A DNA stretch of 64,000 bases from Candidatus Latescibacterota bacterium (GTDB lineage Bacteria > Latescibacterota > UBA2968 > GCA-2709665): assembly GCA_965116875.1 (NCBI GenBank), contig OZ220733.1, positions 3,232,001-3,296,000 of the forward strand, written 5' to 3'. The notes beneath the pieces were generated by a model that worked only from the letters and a program-made list of their open reading frames with translations, was not told where the DNA came from and searched no databases. Position numbers and translations under genes: made by a program. Below, piece by piece: positions 37,204 through 51,960 of this stretch. Every line of letters starts with the position of its first letter. Position 1 is the stretch's first letter.

Positions 37204-38193
37204 TCAGGCCGTCGAGAGGTGCTGCCCGGTCCGGAGAATGCACGCGACGCTGTGGTTTCCGTCGATTTGGAGCAGTTCGGGCACGATCTTCGAACAGGCG
37301 TCTTCCCGTTCGGGGCAGCGTGGATGAAAGGGGCAGCCGGGCGGGACGTTGGCCGGGCTCGGGACGTCGCCCGTCAGTACCGTGCGTTGTTTCCTTACGC
37401 GCGGGTCCGGCTCGGGAACGGCCGAAAGCAGGGCGCGGGTATAAGGATGCTGGGGATTGCTGCAGAGGGTGCTGCTTTCCGCGATCTCCACGATTCGTCC
37501 AAGGTACATCACCGCAATGCGGTTGGAGATGTGTTTGACAACGCTCAGGTCGTGCGCGACGAAGAGGAACGTAAGGCCGAACCGGCCCTGCAGGTCCTGA
37601 AGAAGATTGATGATCTGGGCTTGAATCGATACATCAAGGGCGGAAACGGGTTCGTCCGCGACGATGAAGTCGGGATTCACGGCCAGGGCCCTGGAGATAC
37701 CGATGCGCTGGCGCTGCCCCCCGCTGAACTCGTGGGGATACCTGCGGGCGTATTCCGGACGGAGGCCCACGGTTTCCAGGAGTTCGTCCACTCGTTTCCG
37801 CGTGTTGCTTCCGTCTGTAAGCTTGTGGATTTTCAGTGCTTCGGCCAGCATGCCCCCCACCGTCATACGCGGGTTCAGCGAACTGTATGGGTCCTGGAAT
37901 ATGATCTGCATGCGTCGTCTGACGGTCCTGAGCTCAGAGCGGTTCATACCGAAGACGTCGGTGCCGTTGAACAGCACGCGGCCCGCCGTGGCCTCGATCA
38001 GCCGCAGGATGCTCCTGCCCGCGGTCGTTTTCCCGCAACCGGATTCTCCCACCAGACCCAGGGTTTCTCCCCGTTGCATGGTAAATGAGACGCCGTCAAC
38101 GGCCTTGACGTAGCCGACGGTCCGGGAGAATACGCCGCGGGTGATTGGGAAGTATTTCTTAAGGCCCTGGACTTCGAGCAGTGGTCTGGACAT
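37204..38193 (-). CDS. oppF: Oligopeptide/dipeptide ABC transporter ATPase (OppF/DppF-like)
   Basis: [32 protein letters not shown] and GCPFHPRC. Confidence 0.92.
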
Positions 38194-38194
38194 A

Positions 38195-39193
38195 TCAATC
38201 CGATCGCATCGCGGGAGACGGATAATCTTCGGCCATCCAGCAGGCAACGAAGCGGCGGCCCGAGGTCGGCTCGAGGCGCGGCTCGTCCAATTCACACACG
38301 TCCTCCGCCAATGAACACCGGGGGGCGAATCGGCATCCCGCCGGAAAACGGGTCGCATCGGGCACGGTTCCCGGAATGACGGACAGCCGGCTCTTCTCTT
38401 CATTGAGCGTGGGAATGGACTCGAGCAGTCCTTTCGTGTAGGGGTGCCGGGGGCTGGCGAAAATCTCGTCCACCGTTCCGGTTTCCACGATCTTCCCGGC
38501 ATACATGACCGCCACGCGATCCGCGACCTCCGCAATGACGCCCAGATCGTGGGTAATCATCAGGACGGCCATTCCCAATTCTCTTTGAAGCCGGTCCAGA
38601 AGCTCCAGAATCTGGGCCTGTATGGTTACGTCCAGCGCCGTGGTCGGTTCGTCGGCAATGAGGAGTTCAGGATTGCAGCACAGGGCCATTGCAATCATCA
38701 CCCGTTGGCGCATGCCCCCGGAAAGCTGGTGAGGATACTCGTTTGCGCGCTGTTCGGGGTCCGGAATGCCAACGAGATTCAGCATGTCCACCGTGACGGC
38801 CCGGGCGGCGTCCCTGCCGAGACCCTGGTGGAGCATTACGGCCTCGTCAATCTGGTCTCCGCAGGTGAATACAGGGTTGAGGCTGGTCATCGGCTCCTGG
38901 AAAATCATCGCGACGTCGTTGCCCCTCACACCCTGGAGATCGGCCTCGCCCAGACTCAGCAGATTGCGTCCGTTGAACCGGATCTCGCCCGAGACGATTT
39001 CCCCCGGCGGTTCAGGAACCAGGCGCATTACGGACAGAGACGTGACGCTCTTGCCGCAGCCGGACTCGCCCACCAGGCCCAGGGTTTCACCCTTCTTCAG
39101 GGTGAAAGAGACCCCGTCCACGGCCCTGGCGACACCGCCGTCCGTATGGAAGTATGTTTTCAGATCTCTGACAGTAAGGAGGGGTTCCGACAT
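38195..39193 (-). CDS. oppD: Oligopeptide/dipeptide ABC transporter ATPase (OppD/DppD-like)
   Basis: [26 protein letters not shown] and DEPTTALD. Confidence 0.92.
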
Positions 39194-39302
39194 ATACCTG
39201 CCGTCTGTGAATAATGCGATCGTCCCGGATACCGTCCGAATCTGGCGCGTACCCGCGTGAGCAAGGCATGCCGCCGCCTGGCTGCCCGTCAGCCGCCGTG
39301 GA

Positions 39303-40046
39303 TCAGAACAGCGGCGGATTCAGATTGAGCCAGTCTTCCAGAAGGAAATCCACCCGTCCGATGAGCAGGGAGATGCGCGCCATGACGGTATAACCGAATG
39401 AAGCGCCGAACGAAACCATCAGGAAATAGATGCCAACCCTGGAAATTCCGCCCACAACCCCCTTGTGTTCGACGGAGAAATAAAAGTAAATGAGTACGCT
39501 CAACACGCCGATCAGGATGATCGCCGGATCCAGCACGGCCCATCCAAAGTCCGCCGACGCCTGTGAAAACGGGCGGATCGTGGGCCCGATCTGTTCGATG
39601 ATGAAGGAGGCCACGCGGCGGGGAATGGCCAGCCCGGCGCCGAGTCCCACGAAAAAGGCGAACGAAATGCGGCTGAGCCAGACCGCCTTGCCGACAAAGC
39701 GGGTCATCAGAAAGAGACCGAGCAACGCCGGGACGATGACCCACCAGTTGACGCCCGTGTCAGGATGCGGCCGGAAAAGGGGATTGACCACGTCCAAGAG
39801 GATGCTTTGGTACCAGACCAGAGCGAGTTCGTATGCGGCGACGACGCCCACGTAGAGATGCTCGGCCAGCTTGAAGAGCGGATTGTCCCTGTACAAAAAG
39901 CTGTACAGAGCCAGCGTGATCCCCGCGGCGAGGATGATGCCGAACCCCGACCAGCTTGCCTCCAGGCTGCCGGCGGCCAGGAGATAGACATTCACGGTCG
40001 CAAAAAGCAGAAGGAAGACCGGGAAGACGAGATATTCTCTTTGCAT
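39303..40046 (-). CDS. Uncharacterised multi-pass membrane protein (GlmL-associated cluster)
   Basis: About 7 hydrophobic segments, [20 protein letters not shown] and [16 protein letters not shown]. Confidence 0.8.
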
Positions 40047-50287: not shown

Positions 50288-50606
50288 TCATTCGGTTTTC
50301 CGTCTCCACAAGGGTATCGATCAGTGTCTGGACGCTCTGCCGTTTCTCCAGAAAACGCACGAATCGACCGTATTCCGCGCCTGAGAAGATAAGGGTGACA
50401 AAGGGAGAAAGAAAAGCCAAAAACTGACTGCCTATAAAGTTGAACGGCCGTCCGGCCTCCAGAACCATCAACGCGGGAGTGGTCATCTGCCTGCGAACCA
50501 CGAATTCCGCCATTTTGGCCGCCAGAGCGCGCTCTTCCTCCGTGATTCGGCTTTCCGGAGGGTTGACGGCGAAAGCGTGTTCGCACCAGGTTCTAAGGCG
50601 TTGCAT
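50280..50606 (-). CDS. Small conserved hypothetical protein
   Basis: HAFAV...AEFVVRRQMTTPALMVLEAGRPFNFIGSQ...LEKR. Overlaps both neighbouring genes. Confidence 0.7.
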   Translation of the reverse strand: MQRLRTWCEHAFAVNPPESRITEEERALAAKMAEFVVRRQMTTPALMVLEAGRPFNFIGSQFLAFLSPFVTLIFSGAEYGRFVRFLEKRQSVQTLIDTLVETENRMNG

Positions 50607-51033
50607 CCGCGAGGCGGGTCTGGACGTACTCAATGATTTCCTCCCGATTGTCACGAACGCGCAGGAAACAGCCTCGAAACGGATCGAGTCTGTGAGGTTG
50701 AACGAACGGGCTGAGATGGACGCCGTCTCGGACGACGGTATGCCGGCGAATCCGGTTCCACGGAATGGTCCGCCTTGCGCCAAGGTGCGCTATGAGGATG
50801 TGACTTTCCAGGAGTGCGTATCTTGTGGGGAGGAAGTAACGGGACATGGATGCCATGAGCAGCGCCGCCGCCAGAAAACCGTATGACGGCGCACCGAATT
50901 CAAGGGCAATCAGAACCGACAACCCCAGGATAACCAGGATGAGCAAGCCGGTCTTCGCCGGCGGTTCTTCCAGGAGGGGATGGACCGTCCAGCGGAGGTC
51001 GGCTGCCGGTTCGGTCGTCTTCGGTGTATGCAT
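50593..51033 (-). CDS. Two-TM membrane protein with a soluble PH-like C-terminus
   Basis: WTVHP, two TM segments, YFLPTRY and LSPF...LDPFRG. Confidence 0.7.
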   Translation of the reverse strand: MHTPKTTEPAADLRWTVHPLLEEPPAKTGLLILVILGLSVLIALEFGAPSYGFLAAALLMASMSRYFLPTRYALLESHILIAHLGARRTIPWNRIRRHTVVRDGVHLSPFVQPHRLDPFRGCFLRVRDNREEIIEYVQTRLADATP

Positions 51034-51084
51034 GCTTTCATGGTGCCGGCAAGGAGTCAGTTGGTTGGGTTTATCGAATTGAGA

Positions 51085-51960
51085 TTAAATGATGCGGCGG
51101 ACGATGCGGGGTTGGCGCAGGCCGTCTCCCATGTTCCAGGATTCGGTGCCGTACCTGGTTTCAACGAGAAGTTCGGCGTCGGCCGTTTCCTCGGGAGACA
51201 ACGCGGATTCGCTCAGGGTGACGTCCAGGGTCTCTTCAAAACCGCCTCGAAGGGCGTGCGCCACCCTGTTGAAGTCAGCCGGGCGGCCCGCTTCCGAAAG
51301 GGAGACGGTGTGCCGGTCCAGTTCCCGCCGAAATCTCTCCTTCAGAGGCTTGCGGCGGTCCGGCATGAGATCGATGAGACGTTTGTGTTCCGGGCCCAGA
51401 AGAAGGGAGCCGTGTTGAAGCAGTACGCCGCCCAGACGCCGCTGTGCGCTGCCGATGATTTTCCTGTCGTTGAGCGTCACTTCATACTGTGTGGTACTCG
51501 AAAAGCAGGGTGAGGTGAGGCCCTCTCCACGAGGAGACGAGACCGGAGTACGCCGCGGCTCGAACCGGGCGTCCACGCCGAGGAGTCGCAGGCTTGCAAC
51601 CAGGCAGGCGCTGATTTTCCGGTAGGACTCCTGAATGGAGCCGCCCAGCAGCGGGTCGTCGGCGCGGCAGGTGACGCTGTACGTGAGTTCGTTCCAATGA
51701 AGGACGGCGCGCCCGCCGCTCGGCCGGCGGACAAGCTGGATACCGCGCTGCCGGCATCGGTCCGCGTCGACTTCACGGCCGATCCTCTGGGCGTAGCCGA
51801 AAGAGACGGCGGGCGGCGTCCAGCCGAACGTCCGGACCGTGGGTGGCGACGTATCCCCCTCAACGCCGCGCACAATGGCTTCGTCCACGGCCATATTGAA
51901 GAAGGCGTTTCCCGACCCGGTGTTCAGGAAACGCCACGGACGCGATCCGGTTTTCCGCAT
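51085..51960 (-). CDS. Lipoate-protein ligase A / octanoyltransferase LipM-like
   Basis: NMAVDEA, VRRPSGGRAVLH, RKIIGSAQ and LQHGS. Confidence 0.88.
   Translation of the reverse strand: MRKTGSRPWRFLNTGSGNAFFNMAVDEAIVRGVEGDTSPPTVRTFGWTPPAVSFGYAQRIGREVDADRCRQRGIQLVRRPSGGRAVLHWNELTYSVTCRADDPLLGGSIQESYRKISACLVASLRLLGVDARFEPRRTPVSSPRGEGLTSPCFSSTTQYEVTLNDRKIIGSAQRRLGGVLLQHGSLLLGPEHKRLIDLMPDRRKPLKERFRRELDRHTVSLSEAGRPADFNRVAHALRGGFEETLDVTLSESALSPEETADAELLVETRYGTESWNMGDGLRQPRIVRRII

Follow-up and report, generated by a model that had tools for sequence, protein, structure and literature searches.

A conserved eight-gene module that combines a MutL-type ATPase with membrane proteins in Latescibacterota and Planctomycetota

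What does a GlmL-like ATPase do inside a peptide importer operon when no mutase is encoded beside it? The question is raised by a 64,000-nucleotide (nt) stretch from a Candidatus Latescibacterota bacterium (assembly GCA_965116875.1, contig OZ220733.1, genome coordinates 3232001–3296000). We refer to this whole stretch as the window and count positions from its first letter. Fourteen of its genes, all on the minus strand, form a run in which the widest gap is 109 nt. Our calls of open reading frames (ORFs), combined with Pfam and NCBIfam scans, found all 14 where an earlier note, made from the letters alone, had placed them. That note proposed that the ATPase, a soluble protein, and four membrane proteins form an ATP-driven membrane complex coupled to peptide uptake.

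Comparison across genomes shows that these six genes are indeed conserved together in two phyla. Their number was too low, however: the conserved unit is eight genes, because two small membrane proteins, sm146 and sm167, belong to it. The others are the MutL-type ATPase, a soluble 373-residue protein (S373), a DUF6754 protein, and three membrane proteins (M218, M275, and M247). The ATPase is not GlmL and is independent of glutamate mutase. The module may be an ATPase-driven inner-membrane machine for envelope functions or nutrient acquisition, with a substrate probably tied to the Opp importer; we hold the chances for and against this reading to be evenly balanced.

A conserved module of eight genes

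In the window the module begins with sm146 (50593–51033) and sm167 (longest frame 50280–50783; a probable ATG at 50606 would give a protein of 108 residues, 50280–50606). They are followed by the ATPase (48482–50287), S373 (42988–44109), the DUF6754 protein (41586–42932), M218 (40883–41539), M275 (40059–40886), and M247 (39303–40046), the last gene. The overlapping junctions described in the earlier note are present. The sm167 frame overlaps that of the ATPase by 8 nt and also overlaps sm146, and the stop codon of M218 shares 4 nt with the ATG of M275, which is separated from M247 by 12 nt.

We scanned one genome per species for DUF6754 and confirmed 571 relatives among 607 matching stretches. 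The best 80 of the 571 confirmed loci, with flanks of up to 10 kb, were taken as the locus set, and ten loci from a spread of Planctomycetota genomes were added as an extra set. The window proteins were compared with the loci by tblastn, and a feature was counted only at loci with a long enough flank.

The eight genes are collinear in Latescibacterota and Planctomycetota. M218, M275, and M247 follow DUF6754 at 71 of 72 evaluable loci, S373 stands ahead of it at 65 of 71, and the ATPase gene lies upstream within 10 kb at 51 of 56. In most genomes the ATPase gene abuts S373. Five loci with full flanks lack S373 or the ATPase gene nearby (L033, L070, L081, L082, and L084); all five genomes carry S373 elsewhere, and the ATPase gene sits beside this distant S373 in two of them, the two where the 1.5-kb flank reached. 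Among the ten extra Planctomycetota loci, the membrane trio is beside DUF6754 in eight, S373 is adjacent in eight, and the ATPase gene is adjacent in seven, at identities of 58–71% for the ATPase and 29–56% for the membrane proteins. Homologues of sm167 (105–183 residues) precede the ATPase gene in loci of both phyla. Those of sm146 lie directly upstream of sm167 and the ATPase gene in Latescibacterota loci and in three of the ten Planctomycetota loci (L096, L098, and L099).

The spacing of the genes is also conserved. M218 and M275 overlap in 64 of 76 loci, M275 and M247 are at most 30 nt apart in 65 of 73, and S373 and DUF6754 overlap in 32 of 63 and overlap or abut in 45 of 63. Open frames of 800–1000 residues had suggested a fusion of S373 to DUF6754; this candidate was rejected because the two genes are in different frames in L091 and L093. 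One locus (L102, G257:C18:100000-119999) carries DUF6754-M218-M275-M247 in two tandem copies. From these groupings of genes across loci, the unit is made of two sub-modules, the ATPase with S373 and the four membrane genes, which are usually joined, with the two small membrane proteins ahead.

Co-occurrence was counted at the level of whole genomes. Of the 168 genomes in the window's phylum, 143 contain DUF6754 and 141 contain S373. Both are present in 139, only DUF6754 in four (G001, G032, G065, and G127), and only S373 in two (G029 and G126); all six discordant genomes are 57–89% complete. One family (f10) has neither gene in any of its 13 genomes, and the per-family patterns of the two genes are nearly alike. 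An even sample of 101 Planctomycetota genomes contains 28 with DUF6754 and 26 with S373, all 26 within the 28.

Two further loci depart from the common arrangement of the membrane genes. L103 (G195:C41), from Planctomycetota, encodes a DUF6754 protein of 1272 residues with a long N-terminal extension, has two copies of M247, and carries a PD40 propeller gene between the ATPase gene and S373. L092 (G155:C16:2000-9000), in a genome of the Latescibacterota phylum, holds a second, divergent membrane unit (DUF6754 50% identical, M218 and M275 36%). There the DUF6754 domain ends a frame of 991 residues, and S373 and the ATPase gene were not detected within 7 kb.

The proteins of the module

In a figure legend, MutL/GlmL is called a reactivating chaperone of glutamate mutase (PMC4682846). 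The window ATPase (601 residues) is a clear member of the same Pfam family, PF13941, with 431.8 bits against a gathering score of 27. It falls below every GlmL-family cut-off: NF040745, the GlmL equivalog (232.8 bits against 475), Or-4 (213.1 against 600), and glmL_fam (166.5 against 204). Searches of the PDB sequences with the single sequence and with a profile gave no match. Module-type ATPases are 65–78% identical across two phyla (23 sequences), and their length is 592–617 residues in 59 of 60 loci, the sixtieth being cut by a contig end.

In the 23 aligned sequences, residues D11-G13-T15-K18, D284-G286-G287-T289, and G420-G421 are invariant, as are the stretches ATDCGSTTTKA, GVDIGGATTD, and SGGVLSHAP, which we take to be the ASKHA phosphate-1, phosphate-2, and adenosine motifs. 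All of the ASKHA nucleotide-binding motifs are kept, and the ATPase thus appears to be catalytically intact. Four cysteines (C12, C478, C485, and C498) are invariant in 23 of 23 sequences. The module-type ATPases carry a conserved C-terminal extension of about 120 residues, at the start of which C478, C485, and C498 could form a metal site.

A maximum-likelihood tree of 21 rows was built from 16 module-type ATPases, four GlmLs, and the second PF13941 paralogue of the genome. The 16 module-type ATPases form one clade with 100/100 support and short internal branches. The branch between this clade and the four GlmLs with the second paralogue is about 10 substitutions per site long; the outgroup branches are long, which affects the order of the outgroup and not the separation of the module clade. 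The four GlmLs (461–467 residues) come from plasmid records of Peptoclostridium, Rhizobium, Prevotella, and Escherichia, are annotated in glmS-glmL-glmE-methylaspartate-ammonia-lyase clusters, and are 27–30% identical to the window ATPase. The phylogenetic check that the earlier note had proposed therefore puts the ATPase outside the mutase-linked GlmLs.

The same note had pointed out that the window holds no mutase or B12-binding subunit. This is so: the four PF02310 matches of the genome (at 718719, 946652, 3143639, and 3570857) all lie outside it. No GlmE (PF06368) was found anywhere in the genome (97.7% complete) or in any of three anammox genomes carrying the module, and glmS or glmE was never seen beside a module ATPase in the loci examined. 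A PF01642 gene of the acyl-CoA-mutase type is present at 1844459, about 1.4 Mb away, and is unlinked to either PF13941 gene. The separate clade, the scores below the cut-offs, and the absence of GlmE from the genome establish that the module ATPase is not GlmL. Database records name it 'glutamate mutase L', a name that is misleading for the module clade.

The second PF13941 paralogue (G000:C1:1030075-1031424; L004:9989-11488, minus strand) encodes 499 residues and is 31% identical to the window ATPase. It has no mutase nearby. Downstream on the same strand are genes for two unknown proteins of 692 and 428 residues, after which come those for LptD, D-Tyr-tRNA deacylase, Maf, and a RodZ-like protein. 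This locus could represent another orphan MutL system.

We searched 1.84 billion representative proteins with a profile built from 25 S373 sequences. It gave 3305 matches at E values up to 0.001 (clusters at 50% identity) and 1036 at E values up to 1e-30. Two of the 150 listed, P0144 (995 residues) and P0219 (1003 residues), have PF13941 at the N terminus and S373 at the C terminus. Residues 10–603 of P0144 align with residues 5–594 of the window ATPase, the C-terminal extension included, at 59% identity. Such fusions are found on several contigs, and one is recorded as 'glutamate mutase L' in a Candidatus Ozemobacteraceae metagenome-assembled genome (MAG). In P0047 an N-terminal PilZ domain is fused to S373, which suggests control by cyclic di-GMP (c-di-GMP) in some lineages. 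Five relatives of 435–475 residues (P0170, P0190, P0200, P0248, and P0261) have a duplicated barrel-sandwich domain. The S373 family extends beyond Latescibacterota and Planctomycetota, since one of these five comes from a MAG labeled Clostridiales UBA8153.

The AlphaFold2 model of S373 has a predicted local distance difference test (pLDDT) score of 85.9 and shows three domains. Residues ~51–123 are predicted to form a barrel-sandwich hybrid (VIA-align Z of 7.2–7.5 to NqrA and RnfC, 22% identity) and residues ~152–297 a swivelling β/β/α domain (Z of 8–9 to enzyme I, rifampin phosphotransferase, RraA, and the small subunit of aconitase X). Residues ~309–373 resemble a KOW/SH3-like barrel (Z of about 8 to the NusG KOW). 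These Z values point to folds and not to functions, because they are in a range common for unrelated folds. Foldseek matched the model at the level of single domains only, and the profile gave only weak domain matches to PDB sequences (among them RraA, E of 0.01). The 25 sequences share 96 invariant columns. None of these is a histidine; only H3 is nearly invariant, and it lies outside the swivelling domain. The Pfam matches of the window S373 are to barrel-sandwich models only (RnfC_N, at 17.1 bits against 25.6, and Biotin_lipoyl), and divergent members of the family exceed the gathering scores of RnfC_N or NQRA_N.

S373 was considered as a lipoylated carrier for the lipoate-ligase-like gene at the head of the run. 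The lipoyl/biotinyl match (PF00364) is weak, 16.8 bits against 22.1. At least 90% of sequences keep the candidate lysine, K97, which stands in a lipoyl-like K-x-x-x-E-x-P context and is replaced by arginine in L075. We do not favor lipoylation, given that K97 is not invariant, that divergent members have an RnfC/NqrA-like domain here, and that the ligase gene is the only one of the genome and lies beside fab and acpP.

The DUF6754 protein matches PF20539 over residues 197–442 (376.3 bits against 27). It consists, in order, of a signal or anchor segment, an FN3 domain, a transmembrane (TM) helix, a highly conserved domain, and a C-terminal TM helix. The FN3 domain (residues 73–200) is well modeled, and its VIA-align matches, at Z of 9–10, are all FN3. 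The model as a whole has a pLDDT of 67.6, with an alpha/beta domain after the TM helix that contains near-invariant stretches. The N-terminal ~45 residues are not conserved, and translation may in fact begin downstream of 42932.

By hydropathy, M218 is polytopic with about six TM helices, M247 is polytopic with about five to seven, and M275 has a domain of ~210 residues between an N-terminal and a C-terminal TM helix. The small protein sm146 has a hydrophobic hairpin at residues ~24–58 and a soluble C-terminal part. M218 has 67 invariant columns in 25 sequences. The FN3 and M275 domains are predicted to be periplasmic and the conserved DUF6754 domain cytoplasmic.

No Pfam, NCBIfam, or PADLOC family matched sm146, sm167, M218, M275, or M247. 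At E values up to 5, Pfam gave nothing consistent for the homologues of M218, M247, and M275 (25, 24, and 24 sequences); weak matches were scattered, such as Acyl_transf_3 in eight of 25 sequences and DUF3704 in eight of 24. Comparisons of M275 with DUF6754 and of M218 with M247 by hhalign found no paralogy (probability below 1%), and BLASTP of M275 against DUF6754 found nothing. In the ESM Atlas there was no usable match to M275, and DUF6754 matched only DUF6754 clusters. PADLOC-DB 2.0 contained no family for any of the eight module proteins (E up to 0.01) and no match to an anti-phage system. For the seven proteins other than the ATPase, no characterized relative was found.

Proposed role and its alternatives

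We propose that the ATPase and S373 act as one cytoplasmic unit. The membrane unit would be made of DUF6754, M218, M275, and M247, probably with sm146 and sm167, and would expose the FN3 and M275 domains to the periplasm and the conserved DUF6754 domain to the cytoplasm. The ATPase and S373 would dock on the cytoplasmic face of this unit, most likely on the DUF6754 domain. ATP hydrolysis, relayed through S373, could then power either conformational work or the handling of a substrate, at the inner membrane or across it; the periplasmic FN3 and M275 domains would handle this substrate. In Latescibacterota the substrate may be tied to the Opp importer, that is, to peptide-like solutes, and to the nearby periplasmic propeller and peptidase proteins. 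We consider a connection with Opp uptake probable because an orthologous Opp importer is built into the operon in the window's lineage. In some relatives the PilZ domain fused to S373 may place the machine under c-di-GMP control.

Several observations weigh against this proposal. The membrane-unit proteins have no characterized relative, so a transport or mechanical role is suggested by architecture. The predicted topology derives from hydropathy, the signal-like N terminus of DUF6754, and the positive-inside rule, and the putative cytoplasmic domain of DUF6754 is poorly modeled, with a pLDDT below 50 for most of residues 330–398. The membrane trio was not detected beside DUF6754 in two Planctomycetota loci (L095 and L101). 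Outside Latescibacterota the flanks of the module are very variable and include MFS, TatD, radical SAM, FtsY, and MoxR/DUF58 genes. Related genomes are not independent; the counts above describe a pattern and are not a test, and they overstate the support. Finally, Opp genes are absent within 10 kb of many loci, among them most anammox loci and nine of the ten extra Planctomycetota loci, and the oppDF orthologues of G176 and G177 are far from the module.

The last of these points bear on whether the Opp genes are mere neighbors, with an ancestral adjacency that was shuffled in Latescibacterota and arose by chance elsewhere, and no coupling to uptake. In the window the importer is formed by oppA (46641–48482/48539; SBP_bac_5, 251 bits), oppB (45263–46564; BPD_transp_1 and BPD_transp_1_N), oppC (44188–45258; BPD_transp_1 and OppC_N), oppD (38195–39193), and oppF (37204–38193, probable ATG at 38193), the last two each with ABC_tran and oligo_HPY. 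All match their families above the gathering scores. Because oppA is below every NCBIfam equivalog cut-off, no substrate specificity can be assigned. As the earlier note had described, five genes (S373 to M247) separate oppABC from oppDF, and a TGATG at 48480–48484 joins the ATPase gene to oppA, whose ATG at 48482 overlaps the ATPase stop codon. OppB and oppC are 4 nt apart, oppC is 78 nt from S373, and the oppD stop codon is 1 nt from the oppF ATG. The overlap of the ATPase gene with oppA and the short distance from oppC to S373 argue for co-expression.

The split transporter is not a general feature of the module, however. Only 13 of the 56 evaluable loci, all of them from close relatives of the window, have oppBC between the ATPase gene and S373. 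Opp-type operons are also numerous: each of the four genomes with any oppD-like match has four to seven of them. Set against this, Opp genes adjoin the module in at least five arrangements in two phyla, at least four of them different from that of the window. An oppD-like gene follows M247 in 31 of 61 evaluable loci. Many Latescibacterota loci have oppD and oppF after M247 without oppABC, and the best oppB match in one such genome is 32%. The oppD after M247 is 67–95% identical to that of the window in Latescibacterota loci and 48–57% in two Brocadiales loci (L082 and L083), where an oppF-like gene accompanies it; oppD is 67–74% identical in loci where M247 itself is only 55–62% identical. At 11 loci, sm146 is immediately preceded by an oppA homologue. 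In one genome of this type (G176), M247 is followed, about 8 kb further downstream, by orthologues of oppB (68%) and oppC (79%). In the Planctomycetota locus L100 a complete oppABCDF directly follows M247. The recurrence of Opp genes at the flanks in these other arrangements, in two phyla, makes a functional link plausible. We regard mere adjacency as unlikely, if a serious contender, and, given that the module exists, we lean toward a facultative functional association.

The association of the two sub-modules could also be questioned. The ATPase and S373 might be a soluble enzyme or chaperone pair, either a kinase or carboxylase type related to hydantoinase A or a reactivase, and the membrane proteins a separate transporter of its substrate or product. 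Brocadia-type genomes do show a clean split between ATPase-S373 and DUF6754-M218-M275-M247, and in G206 S373 is about 280 kb from DUF6754. The ATPase has weak matches to Hydantoinase_A and Hydant_A_N, the fold of the middle S373 domain is like those of swivelling phospho-transfer and RraA/aldolase domains, and GlmL has been described as a reactivating chaperone (PMC4682846, in the figure legend mentioned above). Yet S373 and DUF6754 co-occur almost perfectly at the level of genomes, the two genes touch in most loci as counted above (45 of 63), S373 has no invariant histidine able to carry phosphate, and the neighborhood of the module holds no conserved candidate for a client enzyme. We consider a soluble pair improbable.

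An actin-like filament or scaffold, anchored by the membrane proteins and organizing the envelope instead of handling a substrate, is a further possibility that the ASKHA fold of the ATPase brings to mind, by analogy with PilM and FtsA. The second paralogue of the genome, in its block with RodZ-like, Maf, and LptD genes, is in keeping with it. The closest sequence relatives of the ATPase are nevertheless GlmL and hydantoinase-type proteins, not actin-like ones, and the S373 fusion and the PilZ variants are easier to reconcile with a regulated enzyme or motor than with a scaffold; we think this reading very improbable.

That the ATPase is an ordinary GlmL-type reactivase for a B12 mutase elsewhere in the genome is hardly credible: PF13941 membership, the distant PF01642 gene, and four B12-binding domains speak for it, and against it stand the lack of GlmE here and in the three anammox genomes, scores below all GlmL-family cut-offs in a clade apart, an identity to mutase-linked GlmLs less than half of that within the module clade, and co-occurring partners that are S373 and DUF6754.

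With these alternatives weighed, we return to the ATPase-driven inner-membrane machine. In its strongest form it would be the first bacterial inner-membrane machine powered by an ATPase of the ASKHA (actin/Hsp70) fold, in place of a P-loop ATPase or the proton-motive force. The ATPase and S373 would be the motor of a membrane unit that passes periplasmic substrates to an Opp importer or takes them from it, and the machine would be c-di-GMP-controlled in some lineages. This full version is speculative, and we doubt it on balance.

Neighboring genes and comparison with known systems

The run of minus-strand genes is as the earlier note reported, and its boundaries are wider. At its upstream end, the LplA/LipB-type ligase gene (51085–51960; PF21948, 123 bits) is preceded by fabH-fabD-fabG-acpP-fabF-rnc in the same run (fab block in 52733–57259). 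The ligase gene is where that note had placed it. It is probably outside the module, and probably encodes a housekeeping lipoyl or octanoyl transferase, since it is the only PF21948 gene of the genome and ends the fab-acpP-rnc block, next to the gene for acyl carrier protein. It is not carried by the loci of our set labeled Scalindua, Brocadia, Brocadiales, or Planctomycetota, nor by the extra Planctomycetota loci.

Downstream of oppF the run continues with a gene for a PD40/peptidase-MA-like protein of 1309 residues (33314–37243, minus strand), in which the Peptidase_MA match is weak. Its homologues (46–91% identical) follow oppF in Latescibacterota loci, and it is a conserved neighbor within Latescibacterota only. 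Other recurring neighbors of the module with envelope functions are PD40 or other propellers, a TonB-receptor-like gene, ExbB-ExbD-ExbD, and OmpA. In two Scalindua loci (L055 and L036), a 614-residue SpoIVB-type Peptidase_S55 protein and then a Reg_prop β-propeller protein (764 residues in L055, 336 in L036) are encoded just upstream of sm167 on the module strand. Two further Scalindua loci (L041 and L080) have ORFs at the equivalent place that correspond by size only.

Between 33000 and 52800 we found no excess of promoter-like sites (3, against 4.7 in shuffled sequence) or of terminator-like sites (20, against 17.1). An Rfam scan of the whole window gave no match. Elsewhere in the window are a gene for a 1753-residue protein with a DEAD/Helicase_C helicase and a UvrD-type helicase in one frame (17862–23123, plus strand), a gene for an 805-residue protein of the penicillin-amidase family (60169–62586, minus strand; 738 bits), and a sulfatase gene (6272–7639).

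The closest named relatives by DUF6754 (86–94% identity) are MAGs labeled Candidatus Latescibacterota, and a few labeled Gemmatimonadota. Short contigs of a sponge metatranscriptome (X20) are 90–99% alike to parts of the region, and one of them spans 50044–50378 and crosses the junction of sm167 and the ATPase gene. These contigs are a weak hint of expression, because DNA can occur in such libraries. Sponge and coral metagenome runs share small fractions of words with the region, which is no evidence of habitat.

Within the open-access literature the module matches no described kind of system. The full text of PubMed Central and bioRxiv contains no paper for 'DUF6754' or 'PF13941', and GlmL-related terms led to nothing relevant beyond the figure legend of PMC4682846; papers in subscription journals could be missed. 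The module is abundant and strongly conserved, with DUF6754 in at least 571 species genomes. Once its function is worked out, thousands of genes now called 'hypothetical' in the poorly studied Latescibacterota, anammox bacteria, and other Planctomycetota would gain a role, and a new way in which ATP hydrolysis is coupled to events at the inner membrane could come to light. If the proposal holds in its strongest form, the module is a new class of envelope system, for transport or for processing, that occurs in Latescibacterota, in over a quarter of the Planctomycetota sampled, and in other phyla as well. The fusion of the ATPase to S373, the tandem duplication, and the PilZ variants are concrete experimental handles.

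How does the module compare with known systems? With GlmL (PF13941; NF040745) the ATPase shares the Pfam family and the ASKHA motifs, and the two can be aligned over about 470 residues. It differs in having ~120 extra C-terminal residues with three invariant cysteines, and in its partners, which are S373, to which it is fused in some organisms, and four membrane proteins. The importer in the window is of the Opp/Dpp type, with one family-5 solute-binding protein, two permeases, and two ATP-binding cassette (ABC) ATPases. Unlike in other such importers, its operon is interrupted by five unrelated genes, and the MutL-type ATPase gene stands ahead of it.

S373 has in common with RnfC and NqrA the barrel-sandwich hybrid, and it is not a member of either subunit family. 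The rest of RnfC and NqrA consists of nucleotide-binding, SLBB, and Fe-S parts. These are absent from S373, as its Pfam matches are limited to barrel-sandwich models. The membrane proteins of the module match no Rnf or Nqr family either, and M218 has no cysteine. The fold of the middle domain of S373 is like that of the His-domain of enzyme I of the phosphotransferase system (PTS), the swivelling domain of rifampin phosphotransferase, and RraA/HMG-aldolase-like proteins. In contrast to the swivelling domain of PTS enzyme I, it has no conserved phospho-acceptor histidine, and it belongs to none of these sequence families.

The proposed architecture appears closest to systems of the MacB/LolCDE/FtsEX type and to PilM-N-O-P, where an ATPase in the cytoplasm works through membrane proteins that have large domains in the periplasm. 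The likeness would lie in the overall set of parts: a nucleotide-binding protein in the cytoplasm, membrane proteins of both the bitopic and the polytopic kind, and domains that reach into the periplasm. The ATPases of MacB, LolCDE, and FtsEX have the ABC fold, whereas that of the module is ASKHA-fold, and no relationship in sequence or fold was found. PilM-type ASKHA proteins are scaffolds; the module ATPase, in contrast, keeps all of its catalytic motifs.

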